DNA of 64,000 bases, from the sequence record MZ311865.1. One strand, 5' to 3'. The notes under the pieces are model-generated. The model did no database searches, was not told where the DNA came from, and was given only the letters and a program-made list of their open reading frames with translations. Positions 1,853 through 38,847 of this stretch are shown piece by piece; the stretch's first letter is position 1, and each line of letters starts with the position of its first letter. Source of the DNA: Escherichia phage vB_EcoM_LNA2. Position numbers and translations under genes: made by a program.

Positions 1853-4800
1853 ATGGCCGACATCAAACGTAAGTTCAGAGCCGAAGACGGTCTGGACGCC
1901 GGTGGCGACAAGATTGTTAACGTAGCATTAGCCGACCGTACAGTAGGTACTGATGGCGTAAACGTTGACTTCCTGGTACAAGAAAACACCGTTCAAGTAT
2001 ATGATTCTACGCGTGGATATAACAAAGGATTTGTTGTTCTTTATGACAACCGTTTATATCAAGCAATAAATGATATCGTGTCTCCTTCCGGGGCATTTAA
2101 CCTTTTACAATGGCGTGCAGTTCGTACCGATGCACAATGGATAACTGTAGCTTCTGGGTCTTATCAACTTTCTTCAGGTGAATCGATTTCGGTTAACACT
2201 GGTGCCGGCAATGATATGGTTTTCACGTTGCCAAATGCGCCGGTTGATGGTGACACTATTGTTTTGGCTGATATTGGTGGAAGAACCGGGGCAGTTAAAG
2301 TACAGATTAACGCGTCTGTGCAGAGTATTTTAAACTTTAGAGGCGAACAAGTTCGTACAGTTTTAATGACGCGTCCGCGTTCACAACTAGTGTTTGTGTT
2401 TAGTAATCGTTTGTGGCAGATGTATATTACCGATTATGGTAAAGAATCAATCACTGTTACACCTGCTACACCATATCAAGCGCAAGCAAACGATTTTATT
2501 GTTCTTCGTTTTACTAGTGCAGCACCAATCAACATTACACTTCCACGTAATGCTAACAATGGTGATATAATCAGCCTAGTTGATTTAGATAAATTAAACC
2601 CACTGTATCATACGATTATTAAAACATTTGATGATACAACGTCTATTGGCGAAGTCGGGACTCATATCGTCGAAGGTAGAACTTCTTCTGACGCGTTTTT
2701 TGTTTTTGATGCTGCAAATAGTTTATGGCGTATATGGGAAGGCGACCAGAAATCACGTCTTCGTATTATCCGTACAGATTCAAATATTCGCCCAAATGAA
2801 GAAGTTCTTATTTTTGGTACAAATAACGCTACAGCAGAAACTATTAACCTTACGCTTCCTACAGGAATTTTGACCGGTGACACTGTTAAAATTTCAATGA
2901 ACTACATGCGTAAAGGCCAAACAGTAAAAATTAAAGCTGCCGAAGGTGATACAATTGCTTCTTCTGTTGCATTACTTCAGTTCCCTAAACGTTCTGAATA
3001 TCCACCTGATGCTCAATGGGTCTCTGTTACTGAACTAGAATTCAATGGCACTACTTCATATGTTCCTGTATTAGAATTAGCGTATATCGAAGACACCGAT
3101 TCTGACACTCATTATTGGGTTGTGCAACAGAATGTCCCTACGGTAGAACGTGTTGATGCTGGAACTGATGCTACACGAGCTCGTTTAGGTGTTATTGCTC
3201 TTGCTACTCAAGCGCAAGCAAATGTTGATTTAGAGAATACTCCAGCTAAAGAAGTGGCTATTACTCCTGAAACTTTGGCAAATCGTACAGCAACTGAAGC
3301 TCGACGTGGTATCGCTAAAATTGCTACAACAGCACAAGTTAACCAGAATTCCACAGCATCATTTGTGGACGATACTATTGTTACGCCTAAAAAACTAAAT
3401 GAGCGTACAGCAACTGAAACTCGTCGTGGTCTTGCTGAAATTGCTACTCAGGCTGAAACCGATGCTGGTCTTGATGACACAACGATTATTACACCTAAGA
3501 AATTGCAGGCACGTCAGGGCTCTGAAACACTATCTGGTATAGTTAAATATGTATCAACTACTTCTGCTACACCTGCCGCGACTCGTGGAGCTGCAGGCAC
3601 TAATGTTTATAATAAAGACACAACCACGTTAACTATTTCTCCTAAAGCCCTTGACCAATATAAAGCAACTTATGCTCAACAAGGTGCAGTAATTTTAGCT
3701 GTTGATAGTGAAGTAATTGCTGGTCAATCACAAGCAGGTTATTCTCACGCTGTAGTAACTCCTGAAACACTACATAAGAAAACTTCTACTGATGGACGTA
3801 TTGGTTTAATTGAAATTGCTACGCAAGCAGAAACTAATGCTGGGACTGATTATACACGTGCAGTAACGCCTAAGACGTTAAATGATAGGAAAGCTACGGA
3901 AGGATTATCCGGCATAGCCGAACTTGCTACGCAAGTTGAATTTGATACTGGAACTGATGATACTCGTATCTCGACTCCACTGAAAATTAAAACTCATTTT
4001 GATTCTTCTGACCGTACCAGTGTTAATTCTGATTCCGGACTTATTGAAGAAGGAACCTTGTGGAACCATTATACTCTTGATATTTCTAAAGCAAATGAAA
4101 CACAACGTGGTACACTTCGCGTAGCGACCCAGGCAGAATCTAATGCAGGAACTTTAGATGATGTTCTTATTACTCCTAAAAAGCTTTTAGGGACTAAGTC
4201 CACTGAAACGTCTGAAGGCGTAATTAAGGTTGCTACTCAGGCTGAAACTGTAACAGGAACTTCTGCTAATACTGCTGTATCTCCTAAGAATTTAAAATGG
4301 ATTGTCCAGTCTGAACCAACATGGGCTGCTACTACGGCGATTCGTGGATTCGTTAAAACTTCATCCGGTTCTATTACATTCGTTGGTAATGATACAGTTG
4401 GTTCAACACAACCTTTAGAATCATATGAAAAAAATAGCTATGCTATATCTCCATATGAATTAAACCGTGTACTTGCTAACTATTTGCCATTGAAAGCTAA
4501 AGCAGTAGATAGTAATTTATTAGATGGTCTAGATTCATCTCAGTTCATTCGTAGGGATATTGCACAGACGGTTAATGGTTCACTAACCTTAACCCAACAA
4601 ACGAATCTGAGTGCCCCTCTTGTATCATCTAGTACTGCTACGTTTGGTGGTTCAGTTTCGGCAAATAGTACATTGACTATTTCTAACACTGGAACGACTT
4701 CTTCTCGATTTACATTTGAGAAAGGTCCTGCTTCTGGTAGTAATGCTGATTCTGCATTGTATGTTCGTGTATGGGGTAATAAGTACAGCGGCGGTTCTGA

Positions 4801-14072: not shown

Positions 14073-14705
14073 TCACAGTACATTAGTTACAAGGGTAATG
14101 ATTTCTTTGGACACATTAGGGAAGTCAATGTAAGTATATTTACCACCGATCTTAATCTTAACATCATTTTCAAGAGAAGTAAACAGCTTTGATTCAGTTT
14201 CTGACATGTTGTATGCAAAGATTCTAAGAGCGCCATCTCGACGAATTTCAATTTGGCGAATGCCTAGAACTCGTTTAGCGAATCGAACTTCTAAGTTACT
14301 ACGGTTTTCACCAATTTCTTTAACTTCAACTTTATCTTTAATATTTTCAAAAACAAAGTTTGCTAATTCATGCATTTCAGGAGTAACTCCACGTGCTTTT
14401 CTAGTGTTACGTTTCTGAAGAAGTTCTGGAGCATTTTCTTTGGCAAAGAGGTCTGCAGCTTTTTGGATAATATCCATTGCTTCGCCTGTTGCTACAAGTC
14501 CATCACCGGATTTTTCGACTAAACCTTTCTTAATCAATACACCAATGTTAGAGTTAACAACTGATGCATTGTATTCCGCTTCCAGAGCTTCACGGACATT
14601 GGCAGCAGTGGTGAAGTTGTTCTTAATGATATAAACCATTATTGCAGCAGTTTTTTCATTCAGAGCGTTTTCAGAAGCTTTGATGATGTAAGTAACTTTA
14701 GACAT
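14073..14705 (-). CDS. motA: middle transcription activator MotA
   Basis: 210 aa; MSKVTYIIKAS...NIGVLIKKGLVEKSGDGL... matches recalled T4 MotA; position between asiA and gene 52. Confidence 0.9.
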   Translation of the reverse strand: MSKVTYIIKASENALNEKTAAIMVYIIKNNFTTAANVREALEAEYNASVVNSNIGVLIKKGLVEKSGDGLVATGEAMDIIQKAADLFAKENAPELLQKRNTRKARGVTPEMHELANFVFENIKDKVEVKEIGENRSNLEVRFAKRVLGIRQIEIRRDGALRIFAYNMSETESKLFTSLENDVKIKIGGKYTYIDFPNVSKEIITLVTNVL

Positions 14706-14809: not shown

Positions 14810-15025
14810 TTACAAACTCATTTCTTTAATAAGGCCAATAAGTTTTGCCTTTTTAGAACGAAGCTTTTCTAAACGATGTCCATTTGAACCGCGAACCACT
14901 AAAGAATTGATTTCAACTTCTAAGAAATTTAATTCTTCAACAAGTGCTTTACGGGGAGCATTCATACCAGGTTTAACTTTACCAAAACGAGTAGTTGTGT
15001 TTTGGGTTAATTTCATTTTAGACAT
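14810..15025 (-). CDS. hypothetical 71-aa basic protein flanked by duplicated promoter cassette
   Basis: ORF MSKMKLTQNTTTRFGKVKPG...; starts with same ATGTCTAAA context as motA; lies between genes 52 and motA. Confidence 0.5.
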   Translation of the reverse strand: MSKMKLTQNTTTRFGKVKPGMNAPRKALVEELNFLEVEINSLVVRGSNGHRLEKLRSKKAKLIGLIKEMSL

Positions 15026-15097
15026 TTTATTTCTCCAATTTGGTTGTTTTGTTTTGATAGGTCTATAATATCATGTTTGAAGCACATGTAAACTGTT
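15021..15097 (-). repeat. copy B of ~75-bp duplicated promoter/5'UTR/start-codon cassette
   Basis: Near-identical to 14701..14775 (3-nt indel, few mismatches). Confidence 0.7.
15064..15093 (-). promoter_or_regulatory. T4-type early promoter (GTTTAC-N18-ATTATA)
   Basis: Minus strand GTTTACatgtgcttcaaacatgatATTATA upstream of the 71-aa ORF. Confidence 0.5.
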
Positions 15098-15103
15098 TTG
15101 TGA

Positions 15104-15134
15104 GAAAAATGCACAAAAGGGAGCCGAAGCTCCC
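15104..15134 (-). terminator. intrinsic terminator (UUCG hairpin + U-run) after gene 52
   Basis: Plus GGGAGC-CGAA-GCTCCC (15119-15134); on minus strand hairpin is followed by TTTTGTGCATTTTT. Confidence 0.5.
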
Positions 15135-15210
15135 TAATCATGTTTGTCCAACCAATACAGCCAAATCACTAGTGCAGCTATTGCACCGAGAAATCCTAAG
15201 GCTAGGGCAC

Positions 15211-16536
15211 TCAAAGTGCCTCCAAGTCTTTAGTGTACTCTGTCACAACATCGGTAGACTTCCAATACTCATTTTCTTCTTTCTTAGCTTTAGCTTCTTC
15301 GGCTAGTTTACGTGCTTCATCGGAAGTGATATGGAAGATGTTAAGACCTACCAGTTTATCGACATGTTCTTTATACATTTCTATTTGTGCTAGCTCTTCA
15401 GTCAAAGCTTTACGAGTCTTGCCCTGAATCACAATTTCACCGTTGATAACTTTTTTGATGAAGTGTGCCTTAGCAAAAGCCAGTTTAAATGCTTTTTCAG
15501 ATTCAAGGATTTTGTTGTCAATACGTTTCTGAACGTAAGTCTTACGGACTTCAACAAAATCTTTGATTAAGTCCACTACGTTATCGTAGACAGCTAATTT
15601 ACCCTTTTCATTAATCACTGTGATGTTTTGTGAACGACGTTCGATGAGACTAAAATCTTTCATGATTTTTTCATGACGTAGCTCTTCATCATCAGGAAGC
15701 GAGTACTCTTTACGGAACTTCACCTTAAACCCAAAGCCGTGTTCACCACAATCATCTTCCCATGAGATTAGACCTTTGTCTTCCAACGGGTCAAGAACCT
15801 TACTCACATACGTTTCACGGTCGAATTTATATGGGATTTCAGTTATCTGCATTTGAGTGCGAGATGTGAACTTATACGTTCCGTGAATCTCATAACGCCC
15901 ATCAACTTCATGTACTTCACCACGGAATTCCGGGAATTCAACTTTTGGCTTAGTGACATTTTTACCTTGAAGAGCTTGTAATACAGCCTTTTTTACCGAT
16001 TTAAAACTATGAGGCAGAATATTTGTTGCGTAACCGGTTGCAATACCAGAGACGCCATTCAAAAGAACTGTCGGAATAATAGGAAGATAGAATTTTGGTG
16101 GAATGTGTTCTTTATCTTCATGAGCTGGAGCATATTCAGTATCTTTATATACGTTATAGAAATTTTTACTTACACGAGCAAAAATATAACGAGATGCTGC
16201 AGCTTTTTGGACTGTTCTAGAACCAAAGTTGCCTTGGCCATCTAACAGTGGATAGTTGTTGTTCCATGTGTTAGCCATCAATGCACCTGCATCTTGTGCA
16301 GAAGATTCACCATGGTGATAACCTAAATCTGCAACACCGCCTGCAATTGACGCAAGTTTATGAAATTTTTCTTTATTACCACGAGCCAAATCTAACGCAC
16401 GATGGACCACAAAACGTTGAACCGGCTTAAATCCATCAATCATGTTTGGGATTGCACGGTTTTCAACGGTGTACATCGCATATGCTAAGGCTTCGTTATC
16501 AATAATACTTTTTAGATTACGAGAATTCAATTGCAT
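15211..16536 (-). CDS. 52: DNA topoisomerase II medium subunit gp52
   Basis: 441 aa; MQLNSRNLKSIIDNEALAYAMYTVENRAIPNMIDGFKPVQRF (GyrA-like) matches recalled T4 gp52. Confidence 0.9.
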   Translation of the reverse strand: MQLNSRNLKSIIDNEALAYAMYTVENRAIPNMIDGFKPVQRFVVHRALDLARGNKEKFHKLASIAGGVADLGYHHGESSAQDAGALMANTWNNNYPLLDGQGNFGSRTVQKAAASRYIFARVSKNFYNVYKDTEYAPAHEDKEHIPPKFYLPIIPTVLLNGVSGIATGYATNILPHSFKSVKKAVLQALQGKNVTKPKVEFPEFRGEVHEVDGRYEIHGTYKFTSRTQMQITEIPYKFDRETYVSKVLDPLEDKGLISWEDDCGEHGFGFKVKFRKEYSLPDDEELRHEKIMKDFSLIERRSQNITVINEKGKLAVYDNVVDLIKDFVEVRKTYVQKRIDNKILESEKAFKLAFAKAHFIKKVINGEIVIQGKTRKALTEELAQIEMYKEHVDKLVGLNIFHITSDEARKLAEEAKAKKEENEYWKSTDVVTEYTKDLEAL

Positions 16537-16540
16537 ATTT

Positions 16541-16681
16541 TCACCATATTAATGAACGAATATCCATTATAACATCTGAAATGAAAAGCACTACTTGGAT
16601 TAGTCCAAACATCACACCGTAGTACAGAACCGTAAGCAACAACAAGAGCCCGAAGGCTCCTGCTAAAATTTTCTTAATCAT
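16541..16681 (-). CDS. small hydrophobic protein (46 aa), ac/52.1-like position
   Basis: Hand-translated: MIKKILAGAFGLLLLLTVLYYGVMFGLIQVVLFISDVIMDIRSLIW; TAATG overlap with upstream small ORF. Confidence 0.35.
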   Translation of the reverse strand: MIKKILAGAFGLLLLLTVLYYGVMFGLIQVVLFISDVIMDIRSLIW

Positions 16682-16827
16682 TACTCGCCTTTTAACACGT
16701 TAAGAAGAGCTAAGACCGCTAAGGTACCTTGTGATACGGCCTGTTGAAATACTGTTGTTTCGCCTGTAACTAAAGTGCTAACGAATAAAAATGTCCAACA
16801 CAGCAATGCAATAATCCATGCTATCAT
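16681..16827 (-). CDS. small hydrophobic protein (48 aa)
   Basis: Hand-translated: MIAWIIALLCWTFLFVSTLVTGETTVFQQAVSQGTLAVLALLNVLKGE; GAGGTAA SD upstream. Confidence 0.35.
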   Translation of the reverse strand: MIAWIIALLCWTFLFVSTLVTGETTVFQQAVSQGTLAVLALLNVLKGE

Positions 16828-16879
16828 TTTAATTACCTCAAAAATAAATTAAAGGCCCAACTTAATAGGCCTGTATAAA

Positions 16880-17326
16880 TTAGTAACTCTGCAGAATGAA
16901 TTTGAAATTATCTGCCAGAAGACGGTTCATTTCAGTGAGTGTTTGATATTCTGATGTATGGTTGCGAGTGAATGCCAGAGCCAATTGACCTTTACCATAA
17001 CCAGTGGTCAGTGGTTTCATGTTCTTAGCTGCAACAAAGATTACATCATATTCAATATTGTTAGTGCCCATGGTACGGGCTAGTTGTGAACGGCCTTGAC
17101 GAATGTGAGAAAGAATTGCATCCAACCCTTGTTTAGAACGTTGACGTCCTACAAAGAATCGTGCTGCTACTTGTCGCCAATCAGATGAACCTTTAACGAA
17201 GAAGTAAAAACCTTCACGAGAACGAAACTCTTTAGAAACTTCAGAACCGTATTCGCCATTACGAACTACTGCAACAACTTCACCGCCAACTGCCAGAAGG
17301 TCTTTACGAGTTAAATATTTGGACAT
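16880..17326 (-). CDS. ndd: nucleoid disruption protein Ndd
   Basis: 148 aa; ...FYVGNQRSKQG..LSHIRQ.RSQLART...[38 protein letters not shown] matches recalled T4 Ndd. Confidence 0.85.
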
Positions 17327-17362
17327 GCTAATTTCCTCAATTGATTAATGTTTTTGTAATCC

Positions 17363-17396
17363 ATGAGAGCATTATACTCTGCTCTCAAGAGTTTGT
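17363..17396 (-). repeat. 34-bp exact repeat, copy 1 (promoter-hairpin module)
   Basis: atgagagcattatactctgctctcaagagtttgt identical to 62096..62129; contains inverted repeat GAGAGC/GCTCTC around the -10. Confidence 0.7.
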
Positions 17397-17399
17397 ACA
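17371..17399 (-). promoter_or_regulatory. early promoter (TGTACA-N17-TATAAT) upstream of ndd
   Basis: Minus strand TGTACAaactcttgagagcagagTATAAT; -10 lies in loop of 6-bp stem. Confidence 0.45.
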
Positions 17400-17402
17400 A
17401 TT

Positions 17403-17603
17403 TTATTCGGCTATATCAGAACGTTCAAAAAGCTCTTCAACAGTTAAACATTCAGTGTCATCTTCAATAAAGAATCGAGTCCAACACGTTGGGGCGATAC
17501 AGTTATGAGTTTGTCCGGCTATAGAAGCTACACGAATAAGCTGCTGGCCATTGTTCAGGACAAATTTTTCACCAATTTCAACATCTTTAAAAAGCTTAGC
17601 CAT
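17403..17603 (-). CDS. hypothetical early protein
   Basis: 66-aa ORF; promoter 17632-17661 upstream. Confidence 0.4.
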   Translation of the reverse strand: MAKLFKDVEIGEKFVLNNGQQLIRVASIAGQTHNCIAPTCWTRFFIEDDTECLTVEELFERSDIAE

Positions 17604-17631
17604 TTTGTGTTCCTCATGTTTCAGTAGGACT

Positions 17632-17661
17632 ACTATACCATAATCCTACCTTGTTGTAAAC
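17632..17661 (-). promoter_or_regulatory. T4-type early promoter (GTTTAC-N18-TATAGT)
   Basis: Minus strand GTTTACaacaaggtaggattatggTATAGT. Confidence 0.5.
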
Positions 17662-17663
17662 AA

Positions 17664-17774
17664 TTAAATTACATTAAAATATGTTAAAGCCAACCATGTT
17701 CCAGTGAACGAACATGCAATGTAAAAACCCGTATCACAAATTGTTCTTAGTACAATAAGAAGTGCAATTTTCAT
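17664..17774 (-). CDS. tiny hydrophobic peptide (36 aa)
   Basis: Hand-translated MKIALLIVLRTICDTGFYIACSFTGTWLALTYFNVI; ATGA overlap with upstream tiny ORF. Confidence 0.3.
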   Translation of the reverse strand: MKIALLIVLRTICDTGFYIACSFTGTWLALTYFNVI

Positions 17775-17857
17775 AAGTACCTCAACACAATTGAAAATAT
17801 TATACAAATCATTGGGATACTAAGCAACCATATTCCTATCCACATTTTAGAGCTCAT
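17771..17857 (-). CDS. tiny hydrophobic peptide (28 aa)
   Basis: Hand-translated MSSKMWIGIWLLSIPMICIIFSIVLRYL; start overlaps stop of upstream 87-aa ORF. Confidence 0.3.
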   Translation of the reverse strand: MSSKMWIGIWLLSIPMICIIFSIVLRYL

Positions 17858-18117
17858 ATCTCAACTTCCGCGAGTTCCATATATCCTTTGTTGATAACCT
17901 CTTTAAGGTCTTTAGAAAGAATAACACTAAAATGGTCGTTCATATGTCCATTAACTAAACGAGTTATTTCTGCTTCAGATGACATATAAGGCACGTCTGA
18001 GTCCCAATGAGATAGACCCAAATGGGTATAAATCATCCCTTCGTCATCTGCAGTGTTGTACATTGAAACAAATTCGCCTGTTACTTTATGTTTTGCGTAG
18101 AAAAATTTAAATTTCAT
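17854..18117 (-). CDS. hypothetical early protein
   Basis: 87-aa ORF with promoter 18144-18173 upstream. Confidence 0.45.
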   Translation of the reverse strand: MKFKFFYAKHKVTGEFVSMYNTADDEGMIYTHLGLSHWDSDVPYMSSEAEITRLVNGHMNDHFSVILSKDLKEVINKGYMELAEVEI

Positions 18118-18143
18118 GATGTTATCCTCTTTTAGATAGGACT

Positions 18144-18173
18144 ACTATATCATAGTCCTACTTAGTTGTAAAC
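18144..18173 (-). promoter_or_regulatory. T4-type early promoter (GTTTAC-N18-TATAGT) within stem-loop
   Basis: Minus strand GTTTACaactaagtaggactatgaTATAGT; plus-strand TAGGACT/AGTCCTA inverted repeat flanks the -10. Confidence 0.5.
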
Positions 18174-18185
18174 ACTTTTATGAAA

Positions 18186-18743
18186 TTAAAGATGAAGATA
18201 CCACCCGTTGTAGTTGCTCTTGCGGACGATTTTCTTTAGGTCTTCATGGTCTCCCACGAACTTTATAGAATAAGAGAAGACGTCAGGTGAGGTTTCTTTG
18301 ACATCTAATATAATAATGCAATCTGCGACTCGATGGTTCAAGAAGGGCCCTATATTGATTCCATTACCACCCGGATAATCACCACTGTATCCTGTGGTAA
18401 CTGAAATCCATTTAGAATCTATCTGGTGTGTCTTGACTTCTACACGAATTCCACAATACTTGGGATGGGCTAACACGTCCCACGCATACGTGTACGGGTC
18501 TTCTACGTCTTCAATACCTTTATTAACATATCCGTCTAGCCAATTTGCTACCACATACTCTGCAAAGACCGCAACCTTACAACGTCGAACTACATCTTCT
18601 TTGTTTTGGTCAGGATTTTGGCTCAGGGAATACCGAGCAGTGTCAGCAATCTTCACCTTCATTTCACTAGTCAAAAACTCATTCGACAGGATAAATGTCG
18701 GAAGATTCTTCAGTCTCAACAGTCCCAAGTTCGTCTTTACCAT
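18186..18743 (-). CDS. denB: DenB-like endonuclease IV candidate (185 aa from internal start)
   Basis: Track ORF 18186..18806; position between ndd and rIIB as T4 denB; start at ATG 18741-18743 gives T4-like length; sequence identity not verified. Confidence 0.4.
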   Translation of the reverse strand: MVKTNLGLLRLKNLPTFILSNEFLTSEMKVKIADTARYSLSQNPDQNKEDVVRRCKVAVFAEYVVANWLDGYVNKGIEDVEDPYTYAWDVLAHPKYCGIRVEVKTHQIDSKWISVTTGYSGDYPGGNGINIGPFLNHRVADCIIILDVKETSPDVFSYSIKFVGDHEDLKKIVRKSNYNGWYLHL

Positions 18744-18966
18744 AGATACCTCTGATGTGTAGTTCGCCAAAATAAATGCGGTCACCTTCTTCAAGATATT
18801 CAGCATCTACCGGTGGGATTTCAATAACAACTTCGTCGCATTCTAACCAGCCGTAGTGTGCATCACCAGGATGTTTTACCAATTTAGCACAATAAACTGA
18901 TTTACACTTATGATGACCACGAAGATTAGCAATTTTGGATTCTGATACGTCAAATGGATGAATCAT
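18679..18966 (-). CDS. hypothetical protein
   Basis: 95-aa ORF downstream of rIIB; contains HHKCKSVYC...C; overlaps denB-like ORF start, so one start is uncertain. Confidence 0.35.
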   Translation of the reverse strand: MIHPFDVSESKIANLRGHHKCKSVYCAKLVKHPGDAHYGWLECDEVVIEIPPVDAEYLEEGDRIYFGELHIRGIYGKDELGTVETEESSDIYPVE

Positions 18967-38788: not shown

Positions 38789-38817
38789 TTTAACTCCTTA
38801 GTTGATTTGATAGGACT

Positions 38818-38847
38818 ACTATACTATAGTCCATCTATAATGTAAAC
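38818..38847 (-). promoter_or_regulatory. T4-type early promoter (GTTTAC-N18-TATAGT) within stem-loop
   Basis: Minus strand GTTTACattatagatggactatagTATAGT; plus GGACTA/TAGTCC inverted repeat. Confidence 0.5.

Follow-up and report, generated by a model that had tools for sequence, protein, structure and literature searches.

Results

Organization of the gene 52 to denB region

The 64,000-nt stretch of DNA analyzed here (hereafter the window; Escherichia phage vB_EcoM_LNA2, sequence record MZ311865.1) belongs to the genome of a Mosigvirus, a T4 relative of the RB69 type, and is 98.8% identical to phages pEB20 and JK42. Its genes run in the order motA, 52, 52.1, ac, ndd, ndd.1, ..., denB, rIIB, rIIA, which is the order found in T4 and RB69. 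A preliminary description of the window had pointed out four tiny hydrophobic ORFs of 46, 48, 28 and 36 codons around ndd, and all four were recovered at the same positions, each on the minus strand. The proposal that they are small hydrophobic protein genes of the T4 type was borne out by conserved reading frames and purifying selection, and the suggested analogy to T4 ac could be taken further: the 48-aa ORF is not just analogous to ac but orthologous to it, and 52.1 and ndd.6 have their orthologs in the 46-aa and 28-aa ORFs, respectively. Judged by sequence comparison, the four ORFs are genuine conserved genes, three of them counterparts of T4 52.1, ac and ndd.6. The finding is right but ordinary, in that three of the ORFs are already named T4 genes and all four already belong to PHROGs (3595, 2501, 8851 and 18561 for the 46-, 48-, 28- and 36-aa ORFs, respectively). 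No NCBIfam match was obtained for any of the peptides, no solved structure was found for Ac or gp52.1, and a literature search for ndd.2 to ndd.6 and gp52.1 returned no phage study among the top-ranked matches. The features of the region are as follows:

15134..15214, minus strand: 26-aa hydrophobic ORF, with a TTG start over the gene 52 stop (TTGA) and a GGAGG Shine-Dalgarno (SD) sequence
16541..16681, minus strand: 46-aa gp52.1 ortholog (Pfam PF24129, DUF7396; PHROG 3595)
16681..16827, minus strand: 48-aa Ac ortholog (PHROG 2501), with a GAGGT SD and a TAATG overlap with 52.1
16853..16872, minus strand: terminator-like hairpin (AGGCCT...GGGCCT, then a T-rich tail)
17632..17660, minus strand: second copy of an early-promoter-like cassette, directly after the stop of the 36-aa ORF and in front of ndd.1 and ndd
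17664..17774, minus strand: 36-aa ORF (PHROG 18561), with a GAGGT SD and overlapping the 28-aa gene in ATGA
17771..17857, minus strand: 28-aa Ndd.6 ortholog (PHROG 8851), with ATGA overlaps on both sides
17854..18117, minus strand: gene for an 87-aa soluble acidic protein (phrog_2390, E 1e-42), the first in a unit encoding 87, 28 and 36 aa
18144..18172, minus strand: promoter-like site of early type (TTTACA and TATAGT 17 nt apart, with TG), preceding the 87-aa gene

The 52.1 and ac genes

The 46-aa ORF matched Pfam family PF24129 with 81.6 bits (cut-off 27) over all 46 residues, shares phrog_3595 with T4 gp52.1, and is 72% identical to the T4 protein at the same length. Matches to the gp52.1 family were found in 911 phage records. 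AlphaFold2 modelled the protein as one helix spanning residues 2–45 (pLDDT 96), and gp52.1 is predicted to be a single-pass membrane peptide. When compared to T4, RB32, QL01 and VR25, the gene showed a pS of 0.70–0.79 and a pN of 0.18–0.21 (T4 alone: 0.75 and 0.19), and the stretch YYGVMFGLIQVVLFISDVIM is identical in the window and T4 although synonymous sites are saturated; residues 7–18 of the window protein differ from T4. Within Mosigvirus a pN/pS of 0.75 was obtained, a value that comes from very few substitutions. The SD of the 46-aa ORF pairs with the anti-SD at an energy of −4.6. The ORF ends 4 nt before the start of gene 52, the same gap as in T4, and the SD of gene 52 itself is nearly absent (−2.8).

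The 48-aa ORF matched phrog_2501 along its entire length (E 1.8e-21, residues 1–48), a family that also takes in the Ac proteins of T4 (2.2e-25) and RB32 (5.7e-25). Over 38 aa, 34% of residues are shared with T4 Ac, and over 37 aa, 68% with RB32 Ac; the RB32 protein thereby bridges the divergent Mosigvirus and T4 forms; its annotators had remarked that it was "more similar to RB69". The ORF is annotated as "acridine resistance protein" in RB69, JK42, APCEc01 and HX01. It lies between ndd and 52.1 on the same strand, an order also seen in RB69, HX01, RB32, QL01 and VR25. The alignment pairs Q33-G34 of the window protein with Q37-G38 of T4 Ac, and the glycine that corresponds to T4 Gly38 is present in all of 12 Mosigvirus loci compared. 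AlphaFold2 placed two helices at residues 2–20 and 25–47 with a turn at GETT (pLDDT 81), in agreement with the two-helix form described for T4 Ac from ESMFold (bioRxiv 10.1101/2025.06.30.662393). Within Mosigvirus the pN/pS is 0.20, with 6, 1 and 10 variable sites at codon positions 1, 2 and 3, respectively, and against RB32 a pS of 0.81 and a pN of 0.21 were found.

The stop codon of ac and the start codon of 52.1 share one base in the window (TAATG), whereas the two genes overlap by 8 nt in T4 and by 4 nt in HX01. Upstream of ac, the terminator-like hairpin sits in the 52-nt ndd-ac spacer. In T4 this position is taken by stp, next to ac, a gene that the window lacks. Among the Mosigvirus loci, 13 of the 52 columns of the spacer are variable, and no promoter-like site was found in it.

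A coupled three-gene unit with ndd.6

The remaining two ORFs of the preliminary description belong to a longer unit. The 87-aa gene overlaps the 28-aa gene in an ATGA motif that is visible in the sequence and had gone unmentioned, and the 28-aa gene in turn overlaps the 36-aa gene in the same way, so that the 28-aa gene stands in the middle of the unit and the 36-aa gene at its end. The promoter-like site preceding the 87-aa gene lies within a 37-nt cassette, a second copy of which occupies 17625–17661; the two cassettes stand on either side of the three-gene unit. Homologs of the 87-aa gene lie immediately upstream of the ndd.6 homologs of QL01 and VR25.

The 28-aa ORF lies between denB and ndd.1 on the same strand and matched phrog_8851 (E 3.7e-11), the PHROG to which T4 Ndd.6 also belongs (1.6e-17); it has the same length as Ndd.6 and 54% identity to it. 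The family has matches in 746 phage records, and its core, W..(I/V)W.(L/I)SIP.(I/V)C, recurs in QL01, VR25 and Entb_45. The protein is predicted to form a single hydrophobic helix (Kyte-Doolittle mean over 19 residues, 2.62). Its gene is strongly constrained within Mosigvirus, with a pN/pS of 0.09 and 1, 1 and 5 variable sites at codon positions 1, 2 and 3. The label "outer membrane protein" attached to Ndd.6 goes back to an old prediction of localisation in the T4 annotation. We infer that, with a single hydrophobic helix, the inner membrane is a far more likely location than the outer.

The 36-aa ORF matched phrog_18561 with an E-value of 9e-29, the profile covering residues 1–36 of the form with the ATG start. 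An extended form of 47 aa from a TTG at 17807 was rejected, since this start has no SD (dG +0.6) and the profile spans the ATG form end to end. The protein is borderline hydrophobic (19-residue mean 1.78). By tblastn it was found in 152 of 50,697 phage records, each of them named as an Escherichia, Shigella, Enterobacteria or Mosigvirus phage; the number is close to the 153 matches at the level of Mosigvirus DNA. With phmmer, 1.84 billion representative proteins yielded a single true cluster; a second match, to a protein of 2393 aa, had no aligned stretch and is spurious. When the profile was run against the small ORFs of the T4, RB32, QL01, VR25, Klebsiella and Enterobacter loci, nothing fell below E = 1. 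Within Mosigvirus the pN/pS is 0.36, and one variant carries an in-frame 3-nt deletion. The possibility of a diverged Ndd.5, Ndd.2 or Ndd.4 was rejected on the basis of the tblastn, profile and phmmer searches; the 36-aa ORF hit only phrog_18561 compared to phrog_5011 for T4 Ndd.5, and the best local alignment of the two scored 22. By these comparisons, the 36-aa ORF is an orphan restricted to Mosigvirus.

A further hydrophobic ORF at the end of gene 52

A fifth tiny hydrophobic ORF, absent from the preliminary description, was found at the other end of gene 52. The SD of this 26-aa ORF has a pairing energy of −9.3, and a strong terminator hairpin lies downstream. No PHROG match was obtained for it, and tblastn with the peptide gave no match either, an outcome probably due to low-complexity filtering. 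In a DNA search, 150 records covered at least 80% of the stretch, and the ORF is annotated in none of the four Mosigvirus records checked (JK42, phage 55, APCEc01 and NHEP10). A 42-aa ORF at 15013–15141, annotated in NHEP10, crosses a terminator hairpin and a promoter-like site and looks spurious.

Signals, helices and annotation

The preliminary description had assigned an SD and a single transmembrane helix to each of the four ORFs, and both statements needed some adjustment. The SD sequences of the 48-aa and 36-aa ORFs (both −6.9, around the top 2–4% of random positions) and of the 46-aa ORF agreed with it, whereas that of the 28-aa ORF is weak (−3.6; an energy of −3 or below is found at about 30% of random positions). 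Likewise, one helix fits the 46-aa protein by AlphaFold2 and the 28-aa protein by hydropathy, but two are predicted for the 48-aa protein and the 36-aa protein is a borderline case. The remark that automated annotation often misses such ORFs applies to the 28-aa ORF, annotated in two of ten inspected Mosigvirus records, and partly to the 36-aa ORF (seven of ten), but not to 52.1 and ac, which are annotated in all ten. Mislabels have also spread through some of the records, in which, for example, Ndd appears as "naphthalene 1,2-dioxygenase" and the 28-aa helix as "outer membrane protein".

Conservation of the reading frames

Hydrophobic short ORFs are common in this AT-rich genome: among 220 ATG-initiated ORFs of 28–60 aa in the six frames, 20 have a 19-residue Kyte-Doolittle mean of at least 2.0. 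Hydrophobicity alone is therefore weak evidence, and it is conservation that sets the four ORFs above chance. The preliminary description had named loss of the frames in relatives, along with absent ribosome occupancy, as an outcome that would speak against its proposal; the frames are kept, and all four are intact in 12 Mosigvirus loci. The diversity sampled is that of GenBank phage records, and a scan of IMG/VR with Ndd gave only three near-identical loci.

Discussion

The two clusters are probably accessory early genes of Mosigvirus for very small inner-membrane peptides, three of which have T4 orthologs. This reading builds on the orthology, synteny, coding constraint, coupling geometry and predicted helices described above, and its functional side draws on T4. 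Early transcription would carry over from the T4 literature, where 52.1, ac and ndd.2 to ndd.6 give early transcripts, with no protein seen by shotgun proteomics (PMC9697503 Table S2). The same applies to dispensability and the phospholipid effect: the T4 deletion saDelta9, which removes 52.1 through denB, is viable and loses the stimulation of phospholipid synthesis, and under laboratory conditions T4 can do without the entire block (PMC6071114).

Ribosomes would move from ac through 52.1 into gene 52 by termination-reinitiation. On the model of its T4 homolog, the 48-aa protein would insert in the inner membrane and make acridine dyes accumulate inside the cell, as currently proposed by interfering with AcrAB-TolC efflux and in the older view by increasing permeability. 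The acridine phenotype, the only one that experiment ties to these genes (sensitisation of infected cells by T4 Ac; bioRxiv 10.1101/2025.06.30.662393), is likewise taken from T4. Expression of T4 Ac in Escherichia coli makes the cells sensitive to acriflavine and ampicillin (bioRxiv 10.1101/2025.06.30.662393; repeated in PMC13250531), and deletion of T4 ac or the G38R substitution leads to acriflavine resistance, the wild-type allele being the sensitising one (bioRxiv 10.1101/2025.06.30.662393). A block of AcrAB-TolC by Ac is the proposal made in the preprint (bioRxiv 10.1101/2025.06.30.662393). Mosigvirus Ac should sensitise cells to acridines by homology with T4 Ac; however, it diverges from the T4 protein and is without the C-terminal ND, so the phenotype may not transfer. 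As a single-pass helix always encoded beside ac, gp52.1 is probably the membrane partner of Ac. The 28-aa and 36-aa genes would follow the 87-aa gene as cistrons two and three within a self-contained early unit that has its own promoter, and the synthesis of their products would therefore depend largely on translation of the 87-aa gene. Both peptides most likely also enter the inner membrane and modify a property of the envelope. That the peptides insert into the membrane and that Ac acts on efflux is inferred, as is any function proposed here for gp52.1, Ndd.6 or the 36-aa peptide.

Three other explanations were weighed against accessory early membrane peptides. The peptides could be conflict factors, as the preliminary description had suggested, acting in superinfection exclusion, in anti-defence or as triggers of defence, and aimed at host or prophage membrane systems. 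Their genes are early, dispensable and membrane-directed and stand beside stp (in T4), ndd, denB and rIIB/rIIA, all of them host-interaction genes; like factors, namely Imm, Sp, Stp and RII, are named from the same genome neighbourhood of T4. The ndd.1-ndd.6 slot also turns over between genera, as is typical of arms-race loci, holding five small ORFs in T4, four in RB32, one unrelated ORF in LNA2 and others in QL01, VR25 and the Klebsiella and Enterobacter phages. Since gp52.1 and Ndd.6 evolve slowly rather than diversifying, and no exclusion or anti-defence phenotype is reported for any of the peptides in the searchable literature, we consider this explanation unlikely.

It is also quite unlikely that the ORFs serve mainly as translational coupling devices, leading from 52.1 into gene 52 and from the 87-aa gene into the ORFs downstream of it, with the peptides as by-products. 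Gene 52, with its poor SD (−2.8) and its start 4 nt after the 52.1 stop, is what such a device would serve, T4 has this geometry too, and conservation extends to the TAATG and ATGA overlaps; in HX01, TAATG has become CAATGA with the coupling retained. An open frame alone would suffice for this purpose, yet the amino acids of gp52.1 are strongly conserved, most visibly in YYGVMFGLIQVVLFISDVIM; moreover, the 36-aa ORF is the last of its unit and couples to nothing, and missense mutants of T4 Ac have a phenotype. Finally, that AT-rich DNA yielded the small ORFs by chance, or that these stretches are kept for promoters, terminators or mRNA structure, with no peptides made, is highly improbable: the 20 equally hydrophobic ORFs among 220, the T4 orthologs missed by shotgun proteomics and the weak SD of the 28-aa ORF would fit, but variable sites gather at third codon positions (1/1/5 in the 28-aa and 6/1/10 in the 48-aa ORF), pN is about 0.2 between genera at saturated synonymous sites, length and frame are kept across Mosigvirus, Tequatrovirus, Dhakavirus, Gaprivervirus and Klebsiella phages, the indel in the 36-aa ORF amounts to exactly one codon, a phenotype is known for point mutants of T4 ac, and tryptic proteomics is expected to miss hydrophobic peptides of 3–5 kDa that are almost without lysine and arginine.

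The reading as accessory inner-membrane peptides can be extended, in a form that we regard as doubtful, to the whole gene 52-denB stretch of the T-even phages, which would then be a factory for tiny inner-membrane peptides with a conserved core and a fast-turnover slot, including the peptide or peptides behind two T4 phenotypes. Ac, gp52.1 and Ndd.6, along with the tiny ORF overlapping the gene 52 stop, may form the core. The slot would be ndd.1-ndd.6, occupied in Mosigvirus by one lineage-specific peptide of 36 aa, possibly born de novo. At least one peptide, rather than Ndd or DenB, could lie behind two effects that map to this block in T4, namely altered dye efflux or permeability and the stimulation of phosphatidylglycerol synthesis that is lost in saDelta9.

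The ac gene was defined genetically 60 years ago, and the block around it is the map location of a T4 effect on host phospholipid synthesis. With a single ORF in the variable slot, Mosigvirus would offer a simpler background than T4 for single-gene knock-outs. The practical value of the present analysis is curatorial, ndd.6 being mostly left out of the sampled Mosigvirus records; as a discovery it carries little weight, since GenBank records of close relatives annotate the four ORFs at least in part.

Comparison with known systems

The closest counterparts are the T4 genes. T4 gp52.1 (46 aa; NP_049876; DUF7396, PHROG 3595) agrees with the 46-aa protein in length, in its position directly upstream of gene 52 and in a predicted single membrane helix. 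T4 Ac (51 aa; NP_049877; PHROG 2501) shares with the 48-aa protein its position, a size of around 50 aa, a predicted two-helix hairpin and a VF.QA..QG core; the Mosigvirus protein is three residues shorter and ends in KGE, in contrast to ND in T4, RB32, QL01, VR25 and a Klebsiella phage. T4 Ndd.6 (28 aa; NP_049886; PHROG 8851) resembles the 28-aa protein in length, in the pattern MSS...W..(I/V)W.(L/I)SIP.(I/V)C and in the ATGA that its gene shares with the small ORF following it. The ATGA-coupled 87-aa gene upstream of ndd.6 is present in the window, QL01 and VR25, whereas T4 is without it. T4 Ndd.5 (32 aa; PHROG 5011) is matched by the 36-aa ORF in its slot, its ATGA overlap with ndd.6, its MKI start and its small size and hydrophobicity, but there is no detectable sequence similarity between the two, and the 36-aa ORF is best described as a positional analogue and not a family member. 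T4 motA.1 is the positional counterpart of the 26-aa ORF.

Outside the phages, E. coli AcrZ is a 49-aa single-pass partner of AcrB. It is similar to Ac in size and membrane location and differs in the number of helices, with one in AcrZ and a predicted two in Ac. Mimicry of AcrZ at the sequence level was discarded, as BLASTP of window Ac against AcrZ gave no alignment. If the proposed target is right, one idea would be that Ac sits on the AcrAB-TolC pump as a small accessory peptide, in the manner of AcrZ.

Genomic context of the small ORFs

All genes around the four small ORFs lie on the minus strand, and the ORFs were found at exactly the coordinates given in the preliminary description. A megablast search with positions 16400-18200 matched 179 phage records, the top matches being Escherichia phage pEB20 and Shigella phage JK42 (98.7–98.8% identity, full length), both classified in the Tevenvirinae, genus Mosigvirus (RB69 group). 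The region is organized as follows:

14073-14705, minus strand: motA
15134-15214, minus strand: 26-aa hydrophobic ORF, (M)SALALGFLGAIAALVIWLYWLDKHD, a fifth tiny ORF outside the set first described
15211-16536, minus strand: gene 52, with the 46- and 48-aa ORFs next in order
16541-16681, minus strand: 46-aa ORF (gp52.1)
16681-16827, minus strand: 48-aa ORF (Ac)
16880-17326, minus strand: ndd
17403-17603, minus strand: ndd.1 homolog, with the 36- and 28-aa ORFs next
17664-17774, minus strand: 36-aa ORF
17771-17857, minus strand: 28-aa ORF (Ndd.6)
17854-18117, minus strand: 87-aa gene, with denB, rIIB and rIIA next in order

The Ndd homolog is called "naphthalene 1,2-dioxygenase" in several GenBank records of relatives (including those of loci L014 and L019), as is a 38-aa ORF of Entb_45; this label appears to be a propagated mis-annotation. 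For denB (18186-18806, minus strand), the mechanical ORF begins at an upstream ATG, behind a weak Shine-Dalgarno (SD) sequence (-3.0), and encodes 206 aa. RB69, JK42 and APCEc01 are annotated with a 158-aa form (477 nt) and HX01 with the long form; these differing lengths, together with a PHROG match that covers the protein only from residue 22 onward, leave the true start uncertain.

Translation signals, promoters and predicted helices

The final A of the 48-aa ORF stop codon (TAA) is also the first base of the 46-aa ORF start codon (TAATG), and the 28-aa ORF overlaps the 36-aa ORF (ATG form) by ATGA. A second ATGA junction, missed in the preliminary description, joins the 87-aa gene to the 28-aa ORF, and the coupled unit therefore consists of three cistrons (87-28-36). 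SD strength was expressed as the energy of pairing to the 3' end of the 16S rRNA; a value of -3 or below is attained at approximately 30% of random positions. The claim that all four ORFs carry SD sequences holds for the 48- and 36-aa ORFs (both -6.9) and the 46-aa ORF (-4.6), but the 28-aa ORF has a weak site of only -3.6 and its translation must rely on coupling. The 52.1 stop is separated from the gene 52 ATG by 4 nt and the gene 52 SD is almost nil (-2.8), from which we infer translational coupling from ac through 52.1 to 52.

A 37-nt early-promoter-like cassette, GTTTACA-N5-GTAGGAYTATGRTATAGTAGTCCTA, was found at three positions in the window (none expected by chance):

17625-17661, minus strand: directly after the 36-aa ORF stop, ahead of ndd.1
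18137-18173, minus strand: just upstream of the 87-aa gene
38811-38847, minus strand: looser third copy

It contains a -35 TTTACA, a -10 TATAGT and a TG upstream of the -10 hexamer, which is enclosed by an 8-bp perfect inverted repeat (TAGGACTA / TAGTCCTA). The 87-28-36 unit thus lies between two predicted promoters, one cassette on either side.

All four ORFs are hydrophobic, with Kyte-Doolittle 19-residue means of 2.24 (46 aa), 2.36 (48 aa), 1.78 (36 aa) and 2.62 (28 aa). The single transmembrane helix proposed for each agrees with the AlphaFold2 model of the 46-aa protein (one continuous helix, pLDDT 96) but not with that of the 48-aa protein, a helix-turn-helix. Since 20 of 220 ATG-initiated ORFs of 28–60 aa in the six frames of the window were equally hydrophobic, hydrophobicity alone is insufficient and the real evidence lies in conservation.

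Conservation and homology

When the window was aligned with 12 Mosigvirus loci, all 12 proved to keep the starts and frames of the four ORFs, with deviations at or close to a stop codon in three of them. The ac stop has become a sense codon in HX01 and in L007, a metagenomic locus, which lengthens the protein by one residue and creates a CAATGA overlap; OLB35 (record flagged UNVERIFIED) has a 36-aa ORF with altered final residues. Length changes within the ORFs are limited to the loss of a whole codon from the 36-aa ORF, and variable sites are enriched at the third position of codons. Summed over pairs, pN/pS was 0.09 for the 28-aa, 0.20 for the 48-aa and 0.36 for the 36-aa ORF, and 0.75, from few substitutions, for the 46-aa ORF, compared to 0.04 for both ndd and the 87-aa gene. 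Between genera the coding signal is unambiguous: against T4, RB32, QL01 and VR25 the 46-aa ORF has a pS of 0.70–0.79 (saturated) and a pN of 0.18–0.21, and the 48-aa ORF has a pS of 0.81 and a pN of 0.21 against RB32. The frames, whose loss in relatives would have spoken against the preliminary description, are thus kept and constrained at the codon level.

The 46-aa ORF matched Pfam DUF7396 (81.6 bits, cut-off 27) and shares PHROG 3595 with T4 gp52.1, a family found by tblastn in 911 phage records with hosts including Escherichia, Shigella, Klebsiella, Yersinia and Salmonella. PHROG 2501 was matched by the 48-aa ORF, T4 Ac and RB32 Ac, and the ORF is annotated as acridine resistance protein in RB69, JK42, APCEc01 and HX01. 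The 28-aa ORF shares PHROG 8851 with T4 Ndd.6, the core of which also occurs in Dhakavirus QL01, Gaprivervirus VR25 and Kanagawavirus Entb_45. Clear homologs are unannotated in QL01 (3512-3586 of locus L015) and RB32 (2748-2831 of locus L017); those of QL01 and VR25 have an apparent TTG start. The sole PHROG match of the 36-aa ORF was 18561; it was found in 152 phage records, all of Escherichia/Shigella type (compared to 153 Mosigvirus-level DNA matches), and a search of 1.84 billion representative proteins yielded a single real cluster. In six other T-even loci, none of the small ORFs was detectably related to it.

Among ten Mosigvirus records, 52.1 and ac were annotated in all ten and the 36-aa ORF in seven; the suggestion that automated annotation often misses such genes applies to ndd.6 only, annotated in two (phage 55 and HX01).

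The 26-aa ORF, its frame conserved in five Mosigvirus loci, has a TTG start overlapping the gene 52 stop (TTGA) and an SD (GGAGG, -9.3) stronger than any other in the region, and is followed directly by a terminator-like GGGAGC-TTCG-GCTCCC hairpin and T-run. It had no PHROG match and is unannotated in JK42, phage 55, APCEc01 and NHEP10. A 42-aa ORF (15013-15141, minus strand), a hypothetical protein in NHEP10, spans this hairpin and the next GTTTACA promoter-like site and is probably a spurious gene call.

Predicted function

Functional evidence comes only from the T4 orthologs. T4 ac, 52.1 and ndd.2 to ndd.6 give early transcripts, and their proteins were undetected by shotgun proteomics (PMC9697503 Table S2), which is unsurprising for hydrophobic peptides of 3–5 kDa. 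Wild-type ac renders T4 infection acridine-sensitive and its deletion or point mutation confers resistance, while in E. coli the expression of Ac alone increased sensitivity to both acriflavine and ampicillin; membrane-inserted Ac was proposed to block AcrAB-TolC (bioRxiv 10.1101/2025.06.30.662393), a block that appears as an assumption in PMC13250531. The T4 deletion saDelta9, lacking 52.1, ac, stp, ndd, ndd.1 to ndd.6 and denB, is viable, and phage-induced stimulation of phospholipid synthesis is abolished (PMC6071114).

The four products are best viewed, on the T4 model, as probably dispensable early peptides that would insert into the inner membrane and alter envelope properties. Ac may affect dye efflux or permeability, with efflux its putative target, and gp52.1 would be a conserved neighbor of Ac whose translation also supplies gene 52 with ribosomes; any role of gp52.1, Ndd.6 and the 36-aa peptide is one that we infer. 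The exclusion or anti-defence factors suggested in the preliminary description fit the gene neighborhood and the turnover of ndd.1-ndd.6 slot content across genera, and we consider this role unlikely. Slightly less probable still is that the ORFs serve purely as translational coupling devices, as the geometry fits but the conserved peptide sequences do not, nor does the placement of the 36-aa ORF as the last of its unit. Chance or non-coding frames are highly improbable, being excluded by codon-level conservation. The original observation is confirmed and its interpretation partly supported.

Comparison with T4 and related phages

Side by side with the T4 record, the gene order was the same, as was the 52.1/gene 52 geometry. 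T4 gp52.1 equals the 46-aa ORF in length, with 72% identity and the stretch YYGVMFGLIQVVLFISDVIM unchanged, and T4 Ndd.6 equals the 28-aa ORF in length, with 54% identity and the core W..(I/V)W.(L/I)SIP.(I/V)C in both. T4 ndd.5 has the same slot and ATGA junction as the 36-aa ORF; membership of the latter in the ndd.5 family was ruled out, as T4 ndd.5 belongs to PHROG 5011 and not 18561. At the gene 52 end, T4 motA.1 (49 aa), QL01_262 (34 aa) and an unannotated 32-aa ORF of VR25 are positional counterparts of the 26-aa ORF, each overlapping the gene 52 stop; the unannotated 26-aa ORF represents a modest lead.

Ac is more divergent, with 34% identity to T4 Ac over 38 aa and 68% to RB32 Ac, described by the RB32 annotators as "more similar to RB69". 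The glycine of the acriflavine-resistant T4 variant G38R aligns with an invariant glycine of Mosigvirus Ac, while the C-terminus at the ac position is ND in T4, RB32, QL01, VR25 and a Klebsiella phage and KGE in Mosigvirus. The ndd-ac spacer of the window (16828-16879) is 52 nt long, with a terminator-like hairpin and 13 of 52 columns variable among Mosigvirus loci, and lacks stp. As a second modest lead, the simpler Mosigvirus locus could serve to dissect unexplained T4 phenotypes mapping to this block. The features are already-known T4-type genes and one genus-specific small ORF already in PHROGs, in a locus that differs from those of T4, RB32 and VR25, where stp is present between ac and ndd.
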